Source: a virus (lineage: Duplodnaviria; Heunggongvirae; Uroviricota; Caudoviricetes). From it: DNA of 64,000 nucleotides. The stretch lies in IMG/VR virus record IMGVR_UViG_2579778606_000002, positions 27,981 to 91,980 of that record. One strand, written 5' to 3'. A model generated the notes under the pieces. That model did not search any database and was not told the origin of the DNA. It saw only the letters and a program-made list of their open reading frames with translations. The position numbers and the translations under genes were made by a program. Positions 852 to 62,407 of this stretch are shown here, in pieces (within the stretch, counting starts at the first letter, position 1; each line of letters begins with the position of its first letter).

Positions 852-1064
852 TCAAGTTACGATCCAATCATTACCGACTGCATCCGCCGTCGATAAATCG
901 ACTTCCCGGATCTGGCATCCATTAATACAAAACCATCCGGTAGTAGAGCAATTATCAGGCCAGATCCATATACCAACACTCCATGCTTTACGGCAGCACA
1001 CTTCAGCCTGTCCTTCCCTGATTTTTTTTACCGCCTGCATGATGTCCATCACTCGCCTCCCCAA
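852..1064 (-). pseudogene. C-terminal part of Rha-family paralog in a shifted frame (apparent frameshift)
   Basis: Translation aligns with the C-terminus of the intact paralog 53648..54589 (both end ..DWIV[TS]) but is out of frame with ORF 1049..1756. Confidence 0.35.
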
Positions 1065-1756
1065 CCGATCACCTGGAATTGTCCCATCCTTGGGTGATAC
1101 CAGCGTTTTCCTCGGTGTTCAGCCTCCGACATCATCAGGGTAAAGGCATTCATGAAGGGAGATAAGGCCACAATAGTACGACGCGACAATACCCCCTCTG
1201 GCGTCAAAAACTCATGCGTATCTGTGGGAATCCGGTAAGCGTTGACCAGGTTACGGCATTTGGCTTCAGTCAGGCCACATTTCGCCGCTAACTGGCGATA
1301 GCCAATGTAACCTTCTGGCATGTTGCCCTTCTTGATCTGCTCGACGGTTTCAGCAACCTGGCTAACCTTTGACTCAACAACATGAAGCCGCTTTTGCTGC
1401 TGAACTGCATTTGCAGCCATTGCAGCGATCATCTCTATTTCGGTCAACGGCTGGCGTACTTGTTCTTCCAGTTCGCGCCAGCGGTCCACCAGCCGGGCGG
1501 TGAATTCGGGAGAGAGCTGCGCAACGACGATAATGCTATCGCGCTTGCCTTGCTCGCCTTCGAAGACGTAAGCCTCAACACTACGTCGTAGTCCTAAGTT
1601 ATTGATTTTTTCGAAAACCTCAATTTGAGGACGAACAATAACGCCACCTTTGTCTAATGTCTCAATAGTGCGTTTCACATTGTCATGACGTTTTCCCACC
1701 AGCTCCGCGATCTCAATGCTGGTCATTGATGGCTTTTCGAGAATGCAGATATCCAT
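1049..1756 (-). CDS. Rha-family phage regulatory protein (antirepressor-like), truncated relative to paralog
   Basis: N-terminus MTSIEIAELVGKRHDNVKRTIE and block FEGEQGKRDSIIVVAQLSPEFTARLVDRWRELE typical of Phage_pRha; paralog at 53648..54589. Confidence 0.65.
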   Translation of the reverse strand: MDICILEKPSMTSIEIAELVGKRHDNVKRTIETLDKGGVIVRPQIEVFEKINNLGLRRSVEAYVFEGEQGKRDSIIVVAQLSPEFTARLVDRWRELEEQVRQPLTEIEMIAAMAANAVQQQKRLHVVESKVSQVAETVEQIKKGNMPEGYIGYRQLAAKCGLTEAKCRNLVNAYRIPTDTHEFLTPEGVLSRRTIVALSPFMNAFTLMMSEAEHRGKRWYHPRMGQFQVIGWGGE

Positions 1757-1980
1757 CAGTGAGACTCCGCAATGCCGGGATTGGTAATATTGCGATACCA
1801 GGGATTGGTGTTTGGTTGTGGGGAAGTAGAGAAACGACCAGTGAGAACGCCATACTGATCAGGGATCAGAGAACGGGCTTCTTTTTCAGTTGCGGCAATT
1901 GCGAAGTGATCGCAGTGTTTTTGCAGGGAGTGAAAACGCCAGATGAATTCTGGACGTGAGCAAGGATTGGCATTAACCAT
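1756..1980 (-). CDS. icd: Icd-like small protein (host cell division inhibitor-like) preceding Rha gene
   Basis: 74-aa ORF, stop/start overlap with downstream Rha gene; motif EFIWRF..EKEARS shared with paralog 54589..54804; arrangement as P1 immI. Confidence 0.45.
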   Translation of the reverse strand: MVNANPCSRPEFIWRFHSLQKHCDHFAIAATEKEARSLIPDQYGVLTGRFSTSPQPNTNPWYRNITNPGIAESH

Positions 1981-2396: not shown

Positions 2397-3359
2397 TCAT
2401 CCCCGAAAGCCCTCCGGAATTGACCAGTCTTCCCGGTCAAATTCAGACCGATAGCCACGCTGTTTCATCAGGTCAAAGGCTTCACCAATGGTTGCACACC
2501 CCTGGGAGCCAGAATAATCCATTGAGAAATCCAGGGCACTGGATTGTTTAGGCTTATTCACTGCTGTAGCGGCACTACGTATCCATGCAAATTTTTTTGC
2601 CAGCTTTTCAGCGGTACGATACAGAGCCTGCCGTTTTGCGTGCCCCTCATCTGAACGACGCTTTGCAGCTCTCGCTTTTGCCGCCGCCAGGCAGTGGTTG
2701 GTATGTTCTTCCCTGATTACTGGTTTTTTATCCAGACCCCCATTATCCGCTTGAGAACTATCTGCTGGTGAAGCCTTTGGCTGAACCGCGCATGATCTTT
2801 CTCTTCTTTTGGCTATAGAGTGACTCTTATTTTCTATTGGCTGTTCATTTTGAACATGGGGGGACTTGTTCAATTTGAACAGGGGGTTCCCAGTTTCAAA
2901 AAAATAACGAACCTTTGAAATCAACTGCTTAACCAGTTTTGTGGCGTTGGCAAATTTGATGCCCTGCTTACTCCCTATCTCCATTGCTACATGAATGAAG
3001 TGGAGAAATTGTGTTGTAAACCGGTACACGTTACACACCTGAGCATTGTTATTCGCTACCTGATGCTGCTTAACAAGCATTCCGCACTTCGTCGCTTCGG
3101 CAAATGCCCGGCGCACAGTAGAAATACTGCGTCCTGTAATCTCGGACATATCCGCATATGAGCGACGGATCATGTATTCATCGGTAGCTCCTGCCAGGTT
3201 GGCGAACTCGGCAATAATGGCGCTATGTGAAGGGGAAAGAAAACCGCTATGACGAGCAAAAAAACTCAACTGATGACCTTTGATTTTTTTGTGGTATTCA
3301 GTGTTGTTTTTATACTCAGAAGTGTTGAAAGTAACTGAAACTGAATTTAAAATACTCAC
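2397..3359 (-). CDS. Hypothetical protein with predicted HTH (ITGRSISTVRRAFAEATKCGML); possible replication or regulatory protein
   Basis: 320-aa ORF (GTG start in track) flanked by operator-like palindromes; no confident family assignment. Confidence 0.5.
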   Translation of the reverse strand: MSILNSVSVTFNTSEYKNNTEYHKKIKGHQLSFFARHSGFLSPSHSAIIAEFANLAGATDEYMIRRSYADMSEITGRSISTVRRAFAEATKCGMLVKQHQVANNNAQVCNVYRFTTQFLHFIHVAMEIGSKQGIKFANATKLVKQLISKVRYFFETGNPLFKLNKSPHVQNEQPIENKSHSIAKRRERSCAVQPKASPADSSQADNGGLDKKPVIREEHTNHCLAAAKARAAKRRSDEGHAKRQALYRTAEKLAKKFAWIRSAATAVNKPKQSSALDFSMDYSGSQGCATIGEAFDLMKQRGYRSEFDREDWSIPEGFRG

Positions 3360-3530: not shown

Positions 3531-3562
3531 GTGTTAGAAAATTAAGCTAGCTTTTAGCTCAC
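3531..3562. promoter_or_regulatory. Operator-like half-site GTGTTAGAAAA plus degenerate second arm
   Basis: Same half-site as the 32-bp palindromes; overlaps 3' end of 3559..4557 and lies upstream of 2397..3359. Confidence 0.35.
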
Positions 3563-27601: not shown

Positions 27602-28486
27602 ATGGTAGATGACAAAAAAGGCTTTCTGAATGTTGAGGAAATATCAGGGAATACCGGAGAAATCCACAGCTTAAAGCCTAACAATAATAGTACTATTCAG
27701 CCGATAGCTTTGTTGCGGCTTGGGGTGTTTGTTCCCACATTGAAATCTACCAGTGTTGCTTTACGTCGCAAGAACGCCGGTTTAACTAACTCCACTGATG
27801 CGACAGAAGAGCTGTCCAGCCTGAAGATTGTAGAGCAGGAAGGGTATCAGGGTATTGAGATTCATGGTCCACGCCTGGATATGGATACTGATTTTAAGGT
27901 GTGGATAGGCATTACATCTGCATTGTTTGACTATAAACCAGATAATGATGGTGTGATCACCCTGACATTCTCTGAATTTGTGGATCGTTGCGGTTATCCA
28001 AGGAAGCGGCTGTCCAAGGCTTTTCGCAAGAGCATTGGCGACTCTCTAACGCGTATTCAGCAGACGTTGCTGAAGTTCAACTTGCCCACCAGCAAAGAAC
28101 ATGTTCGTTATATCCAGATGAATTTATTGGCATTTAGTGAACTTGATACTGAAAATGACATTATAAGAATCCAACCGCAGAAGCAGTTGTCTGAGTTGTA
28201 CTACGTTGACTATAAGCGAATATTGAAGCTCAAAATGCTCGATAAACTTGGCAGGAAAGAGACAGCCAAGGTGCTTTATACGTTTTTCGAAGCGTTACCT
28301 TCAAACCCTGCGCCAGTGAGTATTGAGCGCCTTCGTGCCAGATTGAACCTCAAGTCCTCGGTTAGCGTTCAGAACAGTGTGATTCGTAAAGCCATGAAAG
28401 ACTTAGAAGCTGTTGAATATCTTAAATTTTCAGAGATAAAGAATGGTCGGAAAATAGGTTTCCAGATCCATAAACGAAATCCATAA
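27602..28486 (+). CDS. repA: Plasmid replication initiator RepA (P1 RepA-like)
   Basis: 294-aa ORF with AAGGA RBS; segments QPIALLRLGVFVP and FFEALPSNPAPVSIERLRARL recall P1 RepA; iterons on both sides. Confidence 0.8.
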   Translation: MVDDKKGFLNVEEISGNTGEIHSLKPNNNSTIQPIALLRLGVFVPTLKSTSVALRRKNAGLTNSTDATEELSSLKIVEQEGYQGIEIHGPRLDMDTDFKVWIGITSALFDYKPDNDGVITLTFSEFVDRCGYPRKRLSKAFRKSIGDSLTRIQQTLLKFNLPTSKEHVRYIQMNLLAFSELDTENDIIRIQPQKQLSELYYVDYKRILKLKMLDKLGRKETAKVLYTFFEALPSNPAPVSIERLRARLNLKSSVSVQNSVIRKAMKDLEAVEYLKFSEIKNGRKIGFQIHKRNP

Positions 28487-36176: not shown

Positions 36177-36255
36177 CATTAGAAAAATAATTTTCGTTAA
36201 CAATCTTGTGTTAGTATGGTCTAATCTTAATTTTCTAACACAAAACATTAGAACA
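36177..36255. promoter_or_regulatory. Cluster of operator-like half-sites and a 34-bp palindrome (GTGTTAGTAT..TTTTCTAACAC)
   Basis: Several TTAGAAAA/TTTTCTAACA motifs in the divergent region between capsid gene and ORF 36257. Confidence 0.45.
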
Positions 36256-42841: not shown

Positions 42842-43523
42842 CTAACGACTCGTCGATTCGCGGAGTTGGCATGATGAATCCTTGTCCGCTCCACAGGCAT
42901 GTTTTTTTGGTGTAATTGTCTTCCTTGCAATATGCAGTGAAGTGATAAGGATGGAATATGTGATCAGGTTTACGCCAGAATGTCGATATTTGGCTGACCG
43001 GGTTTTCAATCATGTACGGGCAACCAATCATCTTTGCAATGTCGTAACACTGCCAGACAACCTGCATTGCTTTGAACTGGAAAACCGGATCTTTTTTCGC
43101 TTTATCTGCGAACCAGCGTGCGCCAGATACAGCCAGGTCAGTACACGGAGGGAAACCGGCTAAAAATACAACTCTGTGCAAATTTTTCCGAAGGAAATTG
43201 TAGACCTCATCACTGTCAATAATTGCGCTGATACGTGTGAGTACAGCACCTGACTCCATCAATTGGCTGCCGGACTCCTGGTGTTGCGGATCGACAATGA
43301 CTGCATCAATGCCGTGTTCCAGCCAGGGGGAAACCATATTCCCTGTATAATCACAAAGACTCACCGCCAGCGGTCGGTTATTAATGCTCTGCTTCACCGC
43401 CAATGGCCTCCACCAGCGAGCTAAACATCGCGGATAATTCGCTTGTGAACAGAATGAAGTCAGCATCAAATCGCTGGGCAACATCTTCACGGTCGATGTC
43501 ATCGTTCTGGTCATAGAGATCAT
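42717..43523 (-). CDS. Divergent C5-cytosine methyltransferase-like protein (start uncertain)
   Basis: GFPPC (motif IV-like), MIENPV (ENV motif) and a C-terminal motif-X-like segment; overlaps rdgC and dam ORFs. Confidence 0.45.
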   Translation of the reverse strand: MISMTRTMTSTVKMLPSDLMLTSFCSQANYPRCLARWWRPLAVKQSINNRPLAVSLCDYTGNMVSPWLEHGIDAVIVDPQHQESGSQLMESGAVLTRISAIIDSDEVYNFLRKNLHRVVFLAGFPPCTDLAVSGARWFADKAKKDPVFQFKAMQVVWQCYDIAKMIGCPYMIENPVSQISTFWRKPDHIFHPYHFTAYCKEDNYTKKTCLWSGQGFIMPTPRIDESLGDPDNRIHKAPPGPERANFRSATPYGFARAVFEANKEGIRG

Positions 43524-44286
43524 CGCAAAACGTCAGTGCTTTGATGCTCATGTCATCGTTTAACCTGAAGGTCGCGCGGTCCTGCCAGTTGATTGCAACT
43601 GTTGTTGCAACTTTTCCGGCTTCAATATGAGTCATTATTTCCTCTGACTGTAGGTCTACTTTCTTGCAACGAACTGCGCCGCCGTCATCGAACAGAGATT
43701 TCAATATGGCTTCTTCGCCTGCTTTAAAGCCTTGAGGAAATGTTGACTTGAACCATTCGGTCATAGTCATTTCGAGCGGTTCTATCGGCGTGAATGGAAT
43801 CACTGGCAGGCTGCCAAGTGATTTACGTAAGAGCGCCAGCATTTCTTCTGCTTTTCTGGCGCTGGAAGCTTCTACGAAGACCAGATAGTTGTCGCGATCA
43901 ATAAGGATTCGCGACAATGATTTGCGAGTGAATGCGCGAGGCAACAAAGAGTGGAGAACTTCATCCTTCAGGGTGTTTTTTTCCGACTTCTTCAGCTTAC
44001 GAGATTGCTCATTTTCGAGCTTTTCCACTTTTTTCTGCACTTCCTCCTTAATGACATGAGAGGGCAGGAGCTTAATTTCTCGCTGTTGCTGGAGAAGTAG
44101 AAAACCGTGGTATTCATGGATCAGGTTGTCAGCCAGAACCGGCACCCATCCGACTTTTGCCATTTCTTGTGATGCGCATGGAGTGAATGTGAATTGGCTT
44201 AAGGCATCACTAACGGTGGTTGAGTCCAGTTTTATTTCGCGGGCAAGGCGATAGACGTATATGTTTTTAAAGGCGACTAATCTCAT
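43381..44286 (-). CDS. rdgC: RdgC homolog (recombination-associated protein; P1 hrdC-like)
   Basis: Alignable to E. coli RdgC along its length (LRKSLGSLPV, HIEAGKV, FCDDLYDQNDDIDREDVAQRFDADFIL); ATG at 44286. Confidence 0.8.
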   Translation of the reverse strand: MRLVAFKNIYVYRLAREIKLDSTTVSDALSQFTFTPCASQEMAKVGWVPVLADNLIHEYHGFLLLQQQREIKLLPSHVIKEEVQKKVEKLENEQSRKLKKSEKNTLKDEVLHSLLPRAFTRKSLSRILIDRDNYLVFVEASSARKAEEMLALLRKSLGSLPVIPFTPIEPLEMTMTEWFKSTFPQGFKAGEEAILKSLFDDGGAVRCKKVDLQSEEIMTHIEAGKVATTVAINWQDRATFRLNDDMSIKALTFCDDLYDQNDDIDREDVAQRFDADFILFTSELSAMFSSLVEAIGGEAEH

Positions 44287-44299
44287 TTTTAGCAAAACT

Positions 44300-44331
44300 A
44301 TGTTAGAAAACAAAACTCAATTATCTAACAC
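44300..44331. promoter_or_regulatory. 32-bp operator-like palindrome (ATGTTAGAAAAC..TATCTAACAC)
   Basis: Same inverted-repeat family, about 14 nt upstream of the rdgC start. Confidence 0.5.
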
Positions 44332-55285: not shown

Positions 55286-55605
55286 TTTGACACCCCCAGC
55301 GCGAGTAAAGAATGCAGATTATCGCGTGAGTGGCGGACAACGAGTGATGGGAAAAGACAGTAGCTGTTCATAGTGTAGTGACTCCTTGCTTTCGGAGCCG
55401 CCATCGACTGTTCCACGGTCTGGTGGCGGCGCAATAAAGGCTGGAACACCGTGAGTCAACGGGGGCTTTTCAGCCACCTATATTGCACCGCCATTGGTAT
55501 GGCGGCGGCAATCATACGAAAAACCAAACGGTTTGTCTCAAAAAGTTGACCGGTGTACCAATCGGTTGTGAATGTACAACGGTGAATTTCACAATTCAAC
55601 TTAAA

Positions 55606-55637
55606 ATGTTAGAAAACTAATTTATTAATTCAGTCAC
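55606..55637. promoter_or_regulatory. Operator-like half-site ATGTTAGAAAA with degenerate partner
   Basis: Overlaps the ref stop codon; upstream of the small ORF and icd-rha copy 2. Confidence 0.35.
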
Positions 55638-56192
55638 CATCTGATACAACGTCATTTCATCAGCATTGTGCCGCCTGAAATCTGCTTTGCCGCCTATTTT
55701 TCCATCAGCATGAACAGGGACCAACCAGGGGTATTGCTCGCGTATCTCTGCTGGCGCTGCGTGTTGATGGTGCCATTTACACAAAGGGAGAACGTATTTA
55801 TGCGCGTTCTCTGCCGTTCTCCCGAAGATGTGGTGCAGGGATACCACAGGGCTATGCTGTCCGTGCATATGGCAGGCAATGCAGGGGAGAGCACCGATGG
55901 TAGTTTGTATCCGGCGCTCATCTGCTGTGAGTGTTCTGCCTTTCAGGCCGCGTGACGCGCGAGTTTTTTTGACAGGAGCAGAAGCGGCCTTCTCTTTTCT
56001 TCGCTGTTCATATTGCTTCGCTTTTTCAATTTTCTTTTGCCGATATTCAGGCGATGCGGCTTTTTCTCGCGCACGCTGCTGCTGGCGTTGAGCTTGCTGA
56101 AGACGCTTTGCCCTTTGTTCCTCCCGCCATTTCGGATCAGCCAGTTTTTTCAGGGCTTTTTGCGTCTGTTTCTCCCAATAGCTTTGCTTCAT
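55617..56192 (-). CDS. ref: Ref-like recombination-enhancement nuclease (HNH-type core, basic N-terminus)
   Basis: Lys/Arg/Gln-rich N-terminus then LPCIACHMHGQH..HHIFGRTAENAHKYVLPLCKWHH; ATG at 56192 (track start is upstream TTG). Confidence 0.55.
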   Translation of the reverse strand: MKQSYWEKQTQKALKKLADPKWREEQRAKRLQQAQRQQQRAREKAASPEYRQKKIEKAKQYEQRRKEKAASAPVKKTRASRGLKGRTLTADERRIQTTIGALPCIACHMHGQHSPVVSLHHIFGRTAENAHKYVLPLCKWHHQHAAPAEIREQYPWLVPVHADGKIGGKADFRRHNADEMTLYQMVTELIN

Positions 56193-56236
56193 AGAAATAC
56201 CCGGTTTGTCTACATCACCGCTATGGTTGATCAAAT

Positions 56237-56268
56237 GTGTTAGAAAATCAAAATTGATTTTCTAACAC
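56237..56268. promoter_or_regulatory. Near-perfect 32-bp palindrome GTGTTAGAAAATCAA-AA-TTGATTTTCTAACAC (operator candidate)
   Basis: 15-bp arms fully complementary; between divergent ref and the early operon. Confidence 0.6.
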
Positions 56269-56308
56269 AAAATGAAGATACTTTTTTCGGACGCTATATC
56301 AGGAGGTC

Positions 56309-56464
56309 ATGATGCTTGTCGCAATAAGTGCAATCCACCAGCAATCCGGTACAGAAATTGGGTTGCTATATGCCCTGTTTTTCACTGTCCTGGCGTTGTT
56401 TGAGCTGGGTATTGAACTCTTTGCTCTCATTAACTTTTGCGTAACGTTCCTGGGGAAACTTTGA
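56309..56464 (+). CDS. Small hydrophobic membrane peptide (51 aa), not in ORF track
   Basis: AGGAGG RBS then ATG at 56309; MMLVAISAIHQQSGTEIGLLYALFFTVLALFELGIELFALINFCVTFLGKL; stop overlaps next ATG (TGATG). Confidence 0.4.
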   Translation: MMLVAISAIHQQSGTEIGLLYALFFTVLALFELGIELFALINFCVTFLGKL

Positions 56465-57075
56465 TGGCTATACGCATTATGAAAATTTACATCGCGGGTC
56501 CGATGACTGGTTATCCCGACTACAACCGCACAGCGTTTTTTTCGAAAGCAAAAGAGCTGATGGAGGCAGGGCATATTGTTCTGAATCCGGCGCTGTTACC
56601 TGCTGGCCTCTGCCAGAGCGAATACATGGATATTTGCCTTGCTATGGTGCGTTCGGCTAATGCGGTCTATTTGCTCAAGGGGTGGGAGGAATCAGTTGGC
56701 GCTCGTGCAGAGCACGAGCTGGCTCAAAAGCTGGGGCTGAATGTAATTTATGAGTCACCAACCAACATTGAATGCCAGGTTGCTCCGCATATTTACCGGG
56801 AACTGGTCAATGCACTGCGTGATATCGCTGCTGTATATCACGGCACAGAACAGCTTCGTGAGCGTTTAGCCCATACCATTTCCTATTACCTGTCTTTATC
56901 TCATGAGCACAAGCTCCGCCAGAAGGTAATGATCAAATTTATCATGAGGTTATCGAAATCCCTGGCAAACGCCGATCCAAAGAATCCATTACCGAAAGAG
57001 GCAATGAATTACCTGAAGTCCTGCAACGTTGTTTCTGAAGATGGCGTTCTTTTGGTTAGAAGGAGTTCTGCGTGA
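56464..57075 (+). CDS. DUF4406-like (nucleoside 2-deoxyribosyltransferase-like) protein
   Basis: MKIYIAGPMTGYPDYNRTAFF..GHIVLNP motif; track ORF starts at upstream TTG 56437. Confidence 0.6.
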   Translation: MAIRIMKIYIAGPMTGYPDYNRTAFFSKAKELMEAGHIVLNPALLPAGLCQSEYMDICLAMVRSANAVYLLKGWEESVGARAEHELAQKLGLNVIYESPTNIECQVAPHIYRELVNALRDIAAVYHGTEQLRERLAHTISYYLSLSHEHKLRQKVMIKFIMRLSKSLANADPKNPLPKEAMNYLKSCNVVSEDGVLLVRRSSA

Positions 57076-57389
57076 GCTGGCGGGGATGGGGAAGGGCAGA
57101 AATCATGATACTCCGCCAGTGCGCCGGGACTATGACAGTCGAGAGTATTGGGAGGCTGATCGGGCGTACCGGTAGTGCTGTCAGAACCAAAGCGCGGCAA
57201 CTGCGGATCTGCATGATTCTGAAAGGAGACTTTCACCCGTCAGCCAAATACCGGCAGGGCGATATAGAACTGGCACGGCAGCTTCATCGGTGTGGTGTTC
57301 CCCGCCGTGAGATCGCAGAAAAACTCGAAATGCCCCTGGGCATGATTAATCAGTACGTTTATTTCGAAAGGAGAGTGTATGAAGTCTGA
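57072..57389 (+). CDS. Hypothetical small protein (possible HTH)
   Basis: 105-aa ORF, GTG start with AGGAG RBS, GTGA overlap with upstream stop. Confidence 0.45.
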
Positions 57390-57741
57390 AGGTTTAACGC
57401 CCGCACAACTGGCAGAGCGTAACGCTGAATTACTCAGGATTACCCAGGAAAAAGCCTTCCACATACTCGAACGATTAGAGACGCTCTCTACGGAGGAGGA
57501 GATATCCCCGGAGATGCTGGTCGAGTGCAGCCGTGTGATATTGCGTCGCAAGAACGACATCGCGCGGCTGACATCTGGCGCACCATCCGTATCAGCCAGT
57601 CCAACGCTTTATTGCAGCTTCTGTAACAAATCCCAGCACACCGTTAAAAAGTTAATTGCCGGGGACAACGTTTTCATCTGCAACGAGTGCGTGAAAGATT
57701 GCAACAACATTATCCAGGAAGAGCAAAGGGAATCAGCATGA
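57379..57741 (+). CDS. Small protein with C-terminal ClpX-type C4 zinc-finger domain
   Basis: [39 protein letters not shown] is about 70% identical to the E. coli ClpX N-terminal zinc-binding domain. Confidence 0.7.
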
Positions 57742-58385
57742 AATTTTCCAAATTTTCTGAGTTGGTGAATCGTATTTTGTCCAACAACCACAGCCATCGT
57801 CGCGATATGGATGTAACAATCGTTGTTCATTCGCCTGGCAGCATTGGTTCAACACCTTCAGTTGAGGTTCAGTCAATTCACGCTGGTTTTGATTGGGATT
57901 CCGGGAAAGTGCTTATTTTCCCATCACAGCCACTGACCACGCTAACACCAGAACAGATTACTGATATCACTGATAGTGTGCGCAAAGGTCAGTCTTGGCA
58001 CGCATATCAGGAATACAAGAAGCATCAAGAGCAGTTGGAAAAATTGTCGATTGAACTGGATGCCGCAAAACAGCGCATTGCAGAGCTGGAGGGTAATCGC
58101 ACGGCGCTGGCAGTGGAGAATGAGCTGGCTCGTAAGGCAGTTCAGGCATTCTGCGATGTTGTTGGCGACAACACCGAGGTTATCGCTGAGGTGGTTGGGC
58201 GAGATGGCGTTCTGGTTATTTTGGAGGCCATGAAGGCAACAGGAAATATGCCAGCCACCGATGCTTTCCTGGCTGAAGTACGGGCGCAGGGCGTGGAGAT
58301 GTTTGCGGAGTGTGCATACACGCTTGAACATCATGATCACGCAGTAGCCTTCGCCGCTGAGCTTCGCAAAGGAGGCAACCAGTGA
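57737..58385 (+). CDS. Ea22-like family protein (paralog 1)
   Basis: Shares [15 protein letters not shown] and [10 protein letters not shown]-terminal segments with paralogs; ATGA overlap with upstream gene. Confidence 0.55.
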
Positions 58386-58969
58386 GCAAGATTGACTATC
58401 AAGAACTGCGCGAGGCGGCGGAACAGGCAACGCAAGATGAATGGGTAGCATATATTTTGCCGGGTCATAACGGCATTTATCCTGCGCGCACGTCTGAGGG
58501 TAGGCATTGCGGATACTTTATTGACTGGCCTGGCGTCTGTCAGGGGCGGGAGAGCATCAGCATCAGAACCTACGCAGTGAATTGCAATGACGCATGGCTA
58601 AACACCGAAGGTGATGACATCTCCGGCTCATACGTTAAGTACAAAGACCATCAGGAAGTGGTTGCCGCTCTTGAGGCCAAGTGCGCGGCGCTGGCAGTGG
58701 AGAATGCGGCGCTTAAACAGTCGGAGAAGGAATTTAATAACTTCTGTCGTCAGGAGTACTACGGTTGGGAGGACAACTTCACGGAAACCCCAGCTACCGA
58801 CGCTCTCCTGGCTGAAGTACGTGCGCAGGGGGTGGATATGGCTCGTAACGCGATGATTGATTTTGTTGATGGTGAAGTTGGGCCAAACAAGAACGTTCCG
58901 GGGCTGATTAGAGGCGCAGAGATATGCGTAAGTATTGCTGAACAGCTTCGCAAAGGAGGCAGCCAGTGA
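58382..58969 (+). CDS. Ea22-like family protein (paralog 2)
   Basis: N-terminus [14 protein letters not shown] and C-terminus [24 protein letters not shown] shared with paralogs. Confidence 0.55.
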   Translation: MSKIDYQELREAAEQATQDEWVAYILPGHNGIYPARTSEGRHCGYFIDWPGVCQGRESISIRTYAVNCNDAWLNTEGDDISGSYVKYKDHQEVVAALEAKCAALAVENAALKQSEKEFNNFCRQEYYGWEDNFTETPATDALLAEVRAQGVDMARNAMIDFVDGEVGPNKNVPGLIRGAEICVSIAEQLRKGGSQ

Positions 58970-59241
58970 ATATCGACACGACAATAACGATCGATACGCT
59001 CCTAAATACCGGTCTGGCACTTCTCGGTTGGCTTTACATCATGTCCCGTACATGGCGATGGCTGGGTTCCATTTTCCTGAAACAGTGGAAAAAACGGCGC
59101 AAACAGGAACTACGCCAGAAGGCATTAGAAGCGTTCTATGACGCATTTGAGCTTAGCCGCATTGAACCAGGTACAACAGCCAGGATAGCGACAAAAGGCG
59201 ACCTGATGATAGTGATGTTCAGACAGGAGAAAACAAAATGA
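58966..59241 (+). CDS. Small membrane protein
   Basis: 91-aa ORF with one TM helix (LLNTGLALLGWLYIM). Confidence 0.4.
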   Translation: MNIDTTITIDTLLNTGLALLGWLYIMSRTWRWLGSIFLKQWKKRRKQELRQKALEAFYDAFELSRIEPGTTARIATKGDLMIVMFRQEKTK

Positions 59242-59462
59242 CAGAACAGACGATGACAAATCGCGAACTTGTTGATGCCGCGATTGAACTTGCTGGCGAT
59301 TTTTATTCCATGTTGGGTTACGAGCATCGACCTGGTTTTAAGTATTGGGAGTCACCGCATCCGCAAGAACAACAGGTGTTTGAAATGGCCTGCCGTGCTT
59401 TTGAGGTTATTCGCGGTTCTGATGTGATGGAGGCCGTTGCCGACTTGGAGGATGAAGAGTGA
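59238..59462 (+). CDS. Small acidic hypothetical protein
   Basis: 74-aa ORF, overlapping start/stop with neighbours. Confidence 0.4.
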   Translation: MTEQTMTNRELVDAAIELAGDFYSMLGYEHRPGFKYWESPHPQEQQVFEMACRAFEVIRGSDVMEAVADLEDEE

Positions 59463-59770
59463 GCATCATTAAAGAAATGCCGGTAGAACGTGATGAATAT
59501 GGCTGCTGGACACATCCGGAGTATGAAAAGTTTTGCGCAGGTCGTGAATATATATCCACTGAGGAATTTGACGCCTGGATGAAGGAAAATAATCTTCAGT
59601 GGACTATTCGCAGTATGGATGAAGATCATTTTAATCTGGACGCAGATGGTCCCGATATTGCCGCCTGGGAACCAGAGCGACCAGAGGGCGAAGGATGGTT
59701 TGTTGGCTCTATTCATGACACTGAAGATGGCCCGGTTTGTATCTGGCTGCGGGAGAAGGTTGCCGCATGA
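59459..59770 (+). CDS. Hypothetical protein
   Basis: 103-aa ORF in the overlapping early operon. Confidence 0.4.
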
Positions 59771-60453
59771 CCCAGGCGCTGCATGAAGTGAATTTATATA
59801 GCCGTATTGATGGTTCAGGCTACAGAAACATATGGGTTGTTGGTGATCTGCATGGTTGCTACACCAGATTGATGTCTGAACTTCATCGTGTGGACTTTGA
59901 CCCGACACAGGATTTACTGATATCGGTTGGCGACCTTATCGATCGCGGCACCGAAAATGTTGAATGCCTGGAGCTATTGCAGATGCCCTGGTTTCGGTCG
60001 GTTATGGGAAACCACGAGCGATTAATGATCGATGCGTTAAGCCCCGCAGGCAACGTGAATAACTGGCTAATGAATGGCGGCCAATGGTTCTTCATGCTGG
60101 ACGCTGATCGGGAAATATTAGCCAGGGCGCTGGTGGAGCTGGTAAGACGTTTACCCTATATCATTGAGTTGAACACCGGGCATGAAACTATCGTTATAGC
60201 CCATGCCGACTATCCTGATAACGAATACCAGTTTGGTAAACCTGTTAGCGATCTCAATGTTACCTGGCGGCGTGAGCGATTTTATGACGCGGTTGATGGT
60301 GTTGGTGGAATGATCACTGGTGCAGATAGCTTTATTTTCGGGCATACGCCAGTAAACAGCCCGAAATCTTTCTGGAACCAGCACTACATAGACACTGGCG
60401 CGGTTTTTTGCGGAAATCTGACGCTAAAGCAGGTGAAGGGAGGCCAGCCGTAA
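59767..60453 (+). CDS. Ser/Thr protein phosphatase (lambda PPase-like metallophosphoesterase)
   Basis: GDLHG, GDLIDRG and GNHE motifs; alignable to lambda phosphatase along its length; ATG at 59767. Confidence 0.8.
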
Positions 60454-60484
60454 TCCTGAACACATCGTTTATGCACTCAAAACC

Positions 60485-60516
60485 GTGTTAGAATATTGAT
60501 TTTAATTTTCTAACAT
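60485..60516. promoter_or_regulatory. 32-bp operator-like palindrome (GTGTTAGAAT..TTTTCTAACAT)
   Basis: Same inverted-repeat family, about 40 nt upstream of gene 60558. Confidence 0.5.
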
Positions 60517-60557
60517 ATTATTTTACCGCTCGGAACAAAACAGAGTCGGTATACATT

Positions 60558-61553
60558 ATGAGTGCAATAATCACACCTCATTTCGTAAACGGAGCTGGTG
60601 TGGCTGTCTTTCCGGTAGACAAGCCCACCAGCAACTACATTGGCGCAGGTCGCCGTTTCATTATCTCTCCACTTCCGCGCGAACAGGCTGAAAACACGCC
60701 AGATGGCGTAGTGGATCTGAACTATTCGCTGGTTGCCAACCAGTCTCTGAAAGCATTTTTTCAAAGCGAGCGCGTATTTAACGCATTAGGCGGTGAAGAT
60801 TCGCTTGTTCATTGGGTAAGTTCCAATATCCACGATTGCCAGGCGCACGATAAGCGCGATTGCAGCCACCAGCTAACCACTCATTTCTATAACGGCTCTG
60901 CCGTTCGCCTGTGCTGGAAACATGATGCGGAATACATGATGAAGGGGTACGGCAAGCTGGATGACCAGTTATCCCTGAATCGTGCCAACTGGGTTATGAA
61001 CTGGGCTGCGAGCGAGTTAAAACTACCGCCAGAACGCGATCTGAGCATGGTTGAACTCACTTTTTGGGCCATTCGCCGGAATCTGAAAGACGAGCTGCCA
61101 GATGAAGCCGGTCGCATTGCATTTTGTCAGCCAAAACAGGAAATCCCTACCGGCACACTGAAAGAATCGGATATCACCTGGGAGCACAGCACCCGTGAGC
61201 TGGTGGACATAACCGCAGAGCAGATCGTCAACCTGTCTGTAGATGAGGATTCCGGCCTGCTGTATATGCGCCGACCAAAAGCGGTTCTCGGTAAAAGCCC
61301 GGCTTATCTCCGGTTTGTGATTTCTCGTCCGTGCATCGGATGCGGAGGCAAAGTTAATCACCCGTTCATGTACCGCGCCCGCTCGTTAAACGAACACGAT
61401 CGCTGGGCCGTTCCTCTTTGCGATGAATGCGCCAGAAGCGCAGAAAACGATGTCCGGGCATGGGAAAAAGCACATGGCATACGCCTTTACGTAGCCGCCA
61501 ACCAGCTTTTCGACTTCGCCATCGAGCGCGGAGTGATCACGTTCAATAACTGA
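60558..61553 (+). CDS. DUF968-like protein with C-terminal Ref-like Zn/HNH-type motif
   Basis: C-terminus RPCIGCGG..HPFMYRARSLNEHDRWAVPLCDEC parallels the Ref core (PCIxC..VPLC). Confidence 0.5.
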   Translation: MSAIITPHFVNGAGVAVFPVDKPTSNYIGAGRRFIISPLPREQAENTPDGVVDLNYSLVANQSLKAFFQSERVFNALGGEDSLVHWVSSNIHDCQAHDKRDCSHQLTTHFYNGSAVRLCWKHDAEYMMKGYGKLDDQLSLNRANWVMNWAASELKLPPERDLSMVELTFWAIRRNLKDELPDEAGRIAFCQPKQEIPTGTLKESDITWEHSTRELVDITAEQIVNLSVDEDSGLLYMRRPKAVLGKSPAYLRFVISRPCIGCGGKVNHPFMYRARSLNEHDRWAVPLCDECARSAENDVRAWEKAHGIRLYVAANQLFDFAIERGVITFNN

Positions 61554-61569
61554 TGGAGTGGATCAAAAA

Positions 61570-62148
61570 ATGAAAGAACGCGGGATGATTTTTAACGATG
61601 AGATGGTCCGGGCAATTCTTGGCGGGAATAAAACACAGACTCGCAGGATTGTTGAAGAAAAATTCTATGGACGAGCAGTTGCCGCAGAGTTGCTTGCCAA
61701 GCATTGTCCATATGGTCAACCGGGCGATCGTATTTGGGTTCGCGAAACCTACCGGGTACATGGCAAAGCGACGGACGTCGCAACGCTGGTTTATCGCGCA
61801 AGCGTGCGTAACTCCTGGACAGAACAAACGCACCGGGTTCCGGTCGATGTTTGTAATAAACCAGTATCAGAAAAGTGGACGCCATCAATTCACATGCCGC
61901 GCTGGGCATCGCGCATTCTTCTGGAAATTACCGACGTGCGTGTGGAACGGCTGCATGACATGAGCGAGGCAGATGCTAAAGCAGAAGGCGCAACTCCGGC
62001 GACGTACAAGATTACGCCACCTGAAGCTGTTTATCGCGTTGGTTTTGGTGATATCTGGCGCAGTATTTACGGGCAGGATAACTGGCTATCTAACCCGTGG
62101 GTATGGGTAATCGAGTTTAAGCGTATTCAGGGGGCAACCAGTGAGTGA
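61570..62148 (+). CDS. ASCH-domain-like protein
   Basis: MIFNDEMVRAILGGNKTQTRR (GxK..R motif); ATG at 61570 with GGAG RBS (track start is upstream GTG 61558). Confidence 0.5.
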   Translation: MKERGMIFNDEMVRAILGGNKTQTRRIVEEKFYGRAVAAELLAKHCPYGQPGDRIWVRETYRVHGKATDVATLVYRASVRNSWTEQTHRVPVDVCNKPVSEKWTPSIHMPRWASRILLEITDVRVERLHDMSEADAKAEGATPATYKITPPEAVYRVGFGDIWRSIYGQDNWLSNPWVWVIEFKRIQGATSE

Positions 62149-62407
62149 GTCAAAATGCCAAATTAATGGCAACAAGATAGAACCGTGCGCGGCGTTGACG
62201 CAATCCCTGGAACATGACGCTGAATACACGACGCGAAAAGGTCTGCTGAAATACAAAATCTATAACCATGCATTAATTCATTCACAAGACCTGATCATGC
62301 TGCGGTCAGGCGAGTTTTCTAAATCGCCTATTCGAGTTTCATTTTGCCCATTCTGTGGTGAAAGTCTGAAAACGTGGGAAGCGGAGGCAGCCAGTGAGCA
62401 AAATTAA
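62141..62407 (+). CDS. Small Cys-rich (zinc-ribbon-like) protein
   Basis: 88-aa ORF with C..C and CPFC pairs. Confidence 0.4.
   Translation: MSESKCQINGNKIEPCAALTQSLEHDAEYTTRKGLLKYKIYNHALIHSQDLIMLRSGEFSKSPIRVSFCPFCGESLKTWEAEAASEQN

Follow-up and report, generated by a model that had tools for sequence, protein, structure and literature searches.

The window analysed here is a 64,000-nucleotide (nt) stretch of a tailed-phage genome (Caudoviricetes; positions 27,981 to 91,980 of IMG/VR record IMGVR_UViG_2579778606_000002). It carries a gene for a DUF968 protein of 331 amino acids (aa) and, to the left of this gene, a gene for a homologue of Ref, the RecA-dependent HNH nuclease of phage P1; an early operon lies between the two. 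From position 55300 to 62200 the window shares 91% identity with Escherichia phage D6 and up to 98% with non-mobilizable plasmids of ~90 kb from E. coli. The record of D6, a P1-like plasmid prophage, annotates homologues of P1 genes, among others c1, cre, lpa, pacAB, repL, icd, ant, and ref; given the 91% identity, the window can be classed as a D6-like phage-plasmid of the P1 family. The order ref, early operon, DUF968 gene is common to the window, D6, and the record L009, whose DUF968 protein is 56% identical. A preliminary description of this DNA had the two genes flanking the early operon in opposite orientations, which holds in a loose sense: ref and the operon diverge, and the DUF968 gene points the same way as the operon and is the first in another series of plus-strand genes. 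The same description proposed that both genes encode repressor-controlled Ref-type nucleases with paired DNA-processing or anti-defence functions.

The DUF968 protein and its relatives

The open reading frame (ORF) at 60558-61553, with its RPCIGCGG motif (residues 257-264) and its NEHDRWAVPLCDEC motif (residues 278-291), was correctly recognized. Its product matches Pfam DUF968 (PF06147) over residues 161-325 with an E-value of 9.8e-45 and 153 bits (cut-off 27.8), and it matches PHROG 96, 'HNH endonuclease', over its full length (E 1e-102). D6 orf98, annotated as 'similar to P1 gene pdcB' and labelled an HNH endonuclease in the D6 RefSeq record, is 98% identical to it. By tblastn, the protein aligns over its full length with P7 Upf95.7/PdcB at 37% identity and with YdfU proteins from lambdoid phages and prophages at ~26%, and these alignments are colinear over 98-99% of the query. 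Both the profile score and this full-length colinearity place the protein in the DUF968/YdfU/PdcB family; an exhaustive profile search recovered only 139 clusters (50% identity) at E<=0.001. The 331-aa start at 60558 is favoured because the N-terminus MSAIITP is kept across distant homologues. In a 98%-identical plasmid (NZ_CP104667; L004, 7869-8822), the Prokaryotic Genome Annotation Pipeline chose a start that makes the protein 14 codons shorter (317 aa).

Conservation and structure prediction suggest that the DUF968 protein is a zinc protein built of three parts (Table 1), the C-terminal ~85 residues of which would form a zinc-knuckle finger of the His-Me type. Residues 1-160 are modelled with a predicted local distance difference test (pLDDT) score of 66-95 by 10-residue block; they gave zero Pfam matches at E<=10 and no assignable confident structural match in PDB or BFVD, the aligned ranges of the matches not being reported. 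A family-wide CQ...CWxHD motif (60831-60926, residues 92-123; consensus LCWHHDN) lies in this region on a confidently predicted beta-hairpin plus helix. The motif resembles PLCxWHH of Ref, and the stretch may hold a second, cryptic module of zinc or His-Me-like type. An assignment of the N-terminal domain as a second HNH domain was considered and set aside: hhalign placed it in register with the C-terminal domain or Ref, but with a non-significant probability of ~1%. The middle region contains conserved LP...GR and ESDI motifs and a PK pair at residues 240-241.

The same three-part architecture is found in D6 orf98, P7 Upf95.7 (full length), and P1 PdcB, all of which share with the window protein a degenerate HNH core that lacks PHH and CH. 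In contrast, the YdfU proteins of lambdoid prophages (Qin YdfU, mEp460 gp49) retain DDPHH...CH...LH and the GxGGMGTK loop, where the window protein has F-M, A, and E and a 7-residue deletion. The genes are also placed differently. YdfU genes lie in the lambdoid nin region, beside RusA and Q, and the P7 gene follows phd-doc-fdc just before Op(lpa)-lpa, with no operator annotated ahead of it. In the window and D6, unlike in P7, the DUF968 gene is located in the early region behind its own palindrome. A YdfU/PdcB gene thus stands directly upstream of a late activator in two unrelated phage types, namely Q in mEp460 (L003, 3001-4756) and Op(lpa)-lpa in P7 (L002, 3001-4585).

Several database proteins join YdfU-like sequence to other domains. 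Four proteins of 607 aa (P0311-P0314) continue from YdfU sequence into the domain of a Q antiterminator, as does P0176, and in P0171, P0219, P0222, P0196, and P0217 the N-terminal 150-250 residues of YdfU-like proteins are fused to tail-fibre, tail-tip (J), or capsid domains. As a clue to function, the fusions to tail-fibre, capsid, or Q domains were discarded, as they look like chimeras of decayed prophages; those with tail-fibre, tail-tip, and capsid domains are most likely deletion chimeras in decaying prophages rather than real architectures.

Fold and catalytic positions of the C-terminal finger

When supplied with a 31-sequence family alignment, AlphaFold returned a model with a mean pLDDT of 84.5, in which strands 269-271 and 284-286 and helix 289-297 form a beta-beta-alpha unit; with a 15-sequence alignment of the D6 clade, the model was poor (mean pLDDT 59.8). 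Structural matches in BFVD were small DUF968, HNH, and Ref-like phage proteins. Against PDB, Foldseek of the model gave nothing significant, phmmer of the 331-aa protein gave no match to PDB sequences, and the family profile reached YbcO only (E 0.82). The preliminary description had stated that the C-terminus parallels the Ref core. This parallel is non-significant in a pairwise BLASTP comparison (E 0.12) but emerges when families are compared: hhalign of the 31-sequence alignment against a Ref alignment gave 91% probability (E 1e-6, 76 columns), and the isolated C-terminal domain gave 90.8% (E 1.2e-6). In this register, the PC..C of the zinc knuckle, strand beta-1, the HD/AH position, PLCxx[CH], and the His of the distal helix all coincide. 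The profile of the D6 clade alone reached 8% probability against the Ref profile. The profile alignments and the predicted fold therefore point to a resemblance that is real and remote, and significant only at the level of family profile and fold.

The C-terminal finger shows the predicted beta-beta-alpha fold with a zinc knuckle and the homology to known members that characterize the His-Me superfamily, and the expectation of a fold shared with Ref was borne out. Homology links the finger to the YbcO and Ref cores, and it has the zinc-knuckle beta-beta-alpha core by which the Ref family is also recognized. The superfamily placement of DUF968 is already published, in a group separate from Ref: DUF968 was assigned with DUF1364/YbcO (PDB 3g27) to His-Me group 7, and Ref to groups 26/31 (PMC5714182).

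The catalytic positions of this finger have been replaced. At the family consensus QPCxxCGxxADDPHHxIGxGxGGMGTKAHDxFxxPLCRxCHxELHxD, the window protein reads RPCIGCGGKVNHPFMYRARS-------LNEHDRWAVPLCDECARSAEND. It keeps the zinc ligands C259, C262, C288, and C291, as well as H280-D281 and P-L-C. F270-M271 stand in place of the His pair that ends beta-1, and the loop between the strands is shorter by 7 residues; A292 replaces the His that follows the second Cys pair, and E296, at a position that is variable within the clade, replaces the next helix His. In the hhalign register, H112/H113, H134, and H153 of P1 Ref map to F270/M271, A292, and E296; H153A is a published active-site mutant of P1 Ref (PMC4330346). 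The protein thus lacks the DUF968 signature DDPHH ... CH ... LH, and it has neither the nearly invariant catalytic His at the end of beta-1 nor the helix metal ligand that mark the superfamily.

The core is covered by 64 clusters (50% identity): HH/H/H is present in 57 of them, one reads HH/H/Q, and six have none of these positions intact, namely the D6 type, three of P1/P7 type, and two others. Mainstream DUF968 members also touch Pfam HNHc_6, HNH_5, HNH, YbcO, or RecA_dep_nuc, only some of them significantly; none of these five profiles was matched by the window protein or by the P1/P7-type representative P0140. As read from the alignments, the general-base His pair, both helix histidines, and part of the loop are gone from the finger of the phage-plasmid clade that comprises D6, P1/P7, and their relatives. 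The domain is not decaying, because it is the most conserved segment within the D6 clade, with a mean pairwise identity of 67% compared with 53-56% for the N-terminal parts. Judged by its residues, the protein is probably not a nuclease of the canonical mechanism. The clade-wide loss appears to be unreported in the literature searched and is a modest new point.

Inactive His-Me fingers that keep the fold and have been recruited to bind DNA or substrate have precedents in Smad MH1, which binds DNA, and in the nuclease-like domain of Enpp (PMC5714182). As in the window protein, the fold and the zinc site are kept in these domains, and no Tyr at a fixed position makes up for the lost general-base His. 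Their sequence kinship with the window protein is at the superfamily level only, and the analogy suggests that the latter may also bind DNA.

Ref, the shared palindromes, and neighbouring genes

The assignment of the gene at 55617..56192 to ref is well founded. Its product matches Pfam RecA_dep_nuc (E 1.2e-35, 122 bits) and PHROG 2321, 'Ref-like RecA filament endonuclease' (E 2e-80), and it has all the invariant Cys and His residues of a 28-sequence Ref alignment. Moreover, its first 76 residues contain 25 Lys and Arg and 9 Asp and Glu, the same figures as published for the disordered N-terminal segment with which P1 Ref binds DNA (PMC4330346). The DUF968 protein differs from Ref in several respects. 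A Pfam scan with it returned only DUF968 and not RecA_dep_nuc (PF16786), and its residues 1-76 contain 6 Lys and Arg and are predicted to be folded, as part of ~250 residues of folded N-terminal domains. The basic disordered segment, the long helical insertion in the finger, and the catalytic histidines of P1 Ref (PF16786, PDB 3plw) are all missing from it.

These differences bear on the proposal that the DUF968 protein is a second RecA-dependent nuclease of Ref type, paired with Ref and co-released with it by one repressor for DNA processing or anti-defence. The operator type common to both genes and the layout retained in D6 and L009 agree with such a pairing. However, the protein lacks the Ref profile match, the basic segment, and every counterpart of H112/H113, H134, and H153, it is colinear with YdfU and Upf95.7, and it belongs to another His-Me group (PMC5714182). 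Its family is also widespread without Ref: YdfU homologues are common in lambdoid phages that lack Ref, the P7 ref and pdcB-type genes are unlinked (~94 kb apart in the linear record), and in L008 the DUF968 gene occurs without an adjoining ref. PADLOC gave no defence-related match and NCBIfam no match, and the anti-defence role thus found no support in these collections. As for the common operator type, it is to be expected, because the operator is spread over the whole early regulon. The proposal is therefore highly improbable, and the comparisons indicate that the DUF968 protein is neither a member of the Ref family nor a partner of Ref.

The palindromes said to precede both genes do exist. 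The one between ref and the early operon spans 34 base pairs (bp), is complementary at 16/17 arm positions (perfect 16+2+16), and lies 43 nt from the ref ATG. The one ahead of the DUF968 gene is an imperfect 32-bp palindrome, complementary at 12/16 arm positions and 41 nt from the ATG. The two palindromes share 81% identity. Across the window, their half-site, TGTTAGAWAAY, was counted 10 times, where 0.14 occurrences are expected, and 0/100 shuffles reached 10. Inverted half-site pairs of 30 nt with identical spacing are located at 44301-44330, 56238-56267, and 60486-60515. Both palindromes are conserved in D6: the one next to ref has kept its sequence while the flanks of the intergenic region between ref and the early operon have diverged, and the one ahead of the DUF968 gene is nearly invariant while the sequence just upstream has diverged. 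In L009, a TTTTCTAACAC half-site lies ~40 nt before the DUF968 start, and palindromes of the same type adjoin ref. The half-site statistics and the conservation in D6 and L009 thus uphold the view that operator-like palindromes of one shared type precede the two genes.

In D6, half-sites are found just upstream of c1 (positions 115 and 199, c1 start 227), upstream of lpa (4632), between repL and icd (21266), at the ref 3' end, in the gap between ref and the early operon, and 43 nt before orf98. In P1 and P7, c1, lpa, repL, icd/ant, and ref are C1-controlled genes, and the P7 record annotates the C1 operators Op(ref) and Op(lpa). The motif hence recurs at immunity-controlled promoters, as expected of a C1 operator. 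In addition, both palindromes have a central TTGATT that resembles a -35 element, followed 17 nt downstream by a -10-like hexamer, which is TATTTT ahead of the DUF968 gene and GATACT ahead of the early operon (8/12 consensus matches each, read by eye). The palindromes are very probably operators of a D6-type C1 repressor that overlap early promoters. The c1 gene itself was not located within the window, and none of the window genes examined corresponded to the genes that flank it in D6 (cre, pacB).

The palindromes might also be sites of another factor, or recombination or replication signals, with the DUF968 gene being read through from the early operon. The promoter consensus is weak and no terminator was seen between ppp and the DUF968 gene, both of which would suit such an arrangement. 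It is nevertheless improbable, as the genes preceded by the motif in D6 (c1, lpa, repL, icd/ant, ref) are exactly the C1 regulon of P1, the motif is strongly enriched and conserved, and the -35-like element sits at the palindrome centre, 17 nt from a -10-like hexamer.

Further half-site copies in the window lie at 221, 2305-2339, 3532-3545, 36204-36240, 44301-44330, and 55607-55620, several of them as inverted pairs of 30-32 nt. Their neighbours include a repL homologue (2397-3359, minus strand), an icd/ant pair (1049-1980, minus strand), an hrdC-like exonuclease gene (43381-44313, minus strand), and a second icd/ant module to the left of ref. The copies together likely outline the regulon of a D6-type C1 repressor. 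The C1 operators of P1 and P7 (ATTGCTCTAAT...; L007, 1963-1979; L002, 4046-4062) have the TCTAA core alone in common with the D6-type half-site (ATTTTCTAACA). D6 C1 is a 345-aa protein, and its sites are often palindromic pairs. Comparison of the sites suggests that the D6 and P1/P7 C1 repressors are related and appear to have different specificities.

Table 1. Coordinates of the genes, protein regions, and putative regulatory sites in the window.
Feature	Position	Strand	Remarks
PdcB/YdfU-family (DUF968) coding sequence	60558..61553	+	331 aa; ORF list, Pfam DUF968, PHROG 96
N-terminal region, residues 1-160	60558..61037	+	Invariant columns C94-Q95 ... C119-W-x-H122-D123
Middle region, residues 161-245	61038..61292	+	First half of Pfam DUF968 profile (161-325)
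Predicted zinc-knuckle His-Me (beta-beta-alpha) domain, residues 246-331	61293..61550	+	Ligands C259, C262, C288, C291
Ref (RecA-dependent HNH nuclease) homologue	55617..56192	-	Pfam RecA_dep_nuc, PHROG 2321
Near-perfect 34-bp palindrome, putative C1-type operator	56236..56269		Between divergent ref and early operon
Imperfect 32-bp palindrome, putative C1-type operator of the DUF968 transcription unit	60485..60516		
Single half-site TGTTAGAAAACTAA	55607..55620	+	ref 3' end, upstream of leftward small-ORF/icd/ant genes; also in D6
Putative sigma-70 promoter TTGATT-N17-TATTTT	60496..60524	+	Embedded in palindrome; 8/12 consensus, by eye

The DUF968 gene is followed, 4 nt past its stop, by a plus-strand ORF of 196 aa (61558-62148), which matches PHROG 874 (function unknown) and, weakly, an ASCH domain (E 0.06). 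The L009 homologue is also trailed by a similarly positioned ORF, and D6 carries a different gene at that spot. In the early operon, a small plus-strand gene (57379-57741) encodes a protein with a C-terminal C4 zinc finger of ClpX type (CSFCNK...ICNECV), named 'ClpX C4-type zinc finger protein' in a near-identical plasmid record; it might target or mimic the N-domain of ClpX. The adjoining plus-strand genes at 57687-58385 and 58382-58969 are a pair of Ea22-like paralogues. Segments of one recur in the other (58078-58122 as 58662-58706; 58251-58301 as 58790-58840), and both end in the same tail, AELRKGG(N/S)Q. Since the number of Ea22-like genes varies among D6-like plasmids, this part of the early operon looks like a recombination hot spot.

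Proposed role of the DUF968 protein

The gene is probably that of a repressor-controlled DNA-binding protein of PdcB/YdfU type with a degenerate HNH fold, and not of a second Ref nuclease. To the explanation as a whole, that is, a PdcB/YdfU protein with a dead finger that is controlled by C1 and binds rather than cuts DNA, we assign a probability of about 0.6. In a lysogen, a D6-type C1 repressor would occupy the 30-32 bp palindrome that overlaps the promoter and keep the DUF968 gene silent. Upon induction or infection, the protein would be produced alongside Ref and the other early functions, and it would bind nucleic acid in a zinc-dependent manner through its catalytically dead HNH fold, without cutting. 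The DNA bound might be single-stranded or branched intermediates of replication or recombination. Non-catalytic DNA binding is more likely than cleavage because the catalytic positions are replaced, the zinc ligands are kept, and the domain is the best conserved part of the protein.

Several points weigh against this explanation. PacI has a Tyr in place of the catalytic His (PMC5714182), and by analogy the loss of canonical residues is no proof of inactivity. All members of the clade carry a Tyr at 270 or 272, the conserved E279, H280, D281, R282, and D298 could form a non-canonical site, and the conserved CWxHD of the N-terminal region could be catalytic. Furthermore, a consensus promoter scan called neither of the 8/12 sites in the palindromes, which fell below its threshold. 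No functional study of YdfU, DUF968, or PdcB was found in the literature searched, where the papers listed for pdcB contained unrelated acronyms only.

The first of these points lead to an alternative in which the DUF968 protein is still an active nuclease that processes replication or recombination intermediates early in lytic growth by means of a non-canonical site, a role of the kind proposed for DUF968 proteins at large. Such a site might consist of Tyr270/Tyr272 as the nucleophile, as in PacI, with E279, D281, and D298 holding the metal, or it might be the N-terminal CWxHD module. The labels of PHROG 96 and the D6 RefSeq record name an HNH endonuclease, His-Me group 7 has been hypothesised to contain a recombination nuclease (PMC5714182), and the strong conservation of the domain is equally compatible with catalysis. 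However, the Tyr has no fixed position, since the triplets at 270-272 read F-M-Y, Y-M-F, or Y-L-Y, and the three canonical His positions are gone together with a 7-residue loop. In addition, the position that matches Ref H153 varies within the clade, and the N-terminal domain compares to HNH domains with the ~1% probability given above. An active nuclease is therefore rather unlikely; nuclease activity, as put forward in the preliminary description, is doubtful, since the general-base His pair and both helix histidines, including the counterpart of P1 Ref H153, are replaced.

A more specific version of the DNA-binding explanation is that the PdcB clade of P1 and D6 represents an exapted dead His-Me finger that serves as a DNA-binding regulator or licensing factor, one form of which would be a link to late-gene activation, in view of the family's genes that stand ahead of Q in lambdoid phages and of lpa in P1/P7 and of the proteins that run on into Q; this version is tentative and clearly on the unlikely side. 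A related speculation is that the N-terminal CQ...CWxHD hairpin and helix might be a duplicated, cryptic module of His-Me or treble-clef type.

The advance is incremental because the gene, the family, and the superfamily assignment are already public and no function has been established. What the analysis adds concerns a protein that databases call an 'HNH endonuclease': in the D6/P1/P7 clade, every canonical catalytic residue has been shed, and the zinc site is under strong constraint. The analysis also yielded, as a by-product, a likely half-site for the operators of the D6-type C1 repressor and an outline of the regulon. For the DUF968 protein itself, the catalytic loss favours binding or regulatory assays over nuclease assays. 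It also calls for caution in the very common P1/D6-like plasmids of E. coli and Salmonella, in which genes of pdcB type should not be counted as nucleases or anti-defence effectors.

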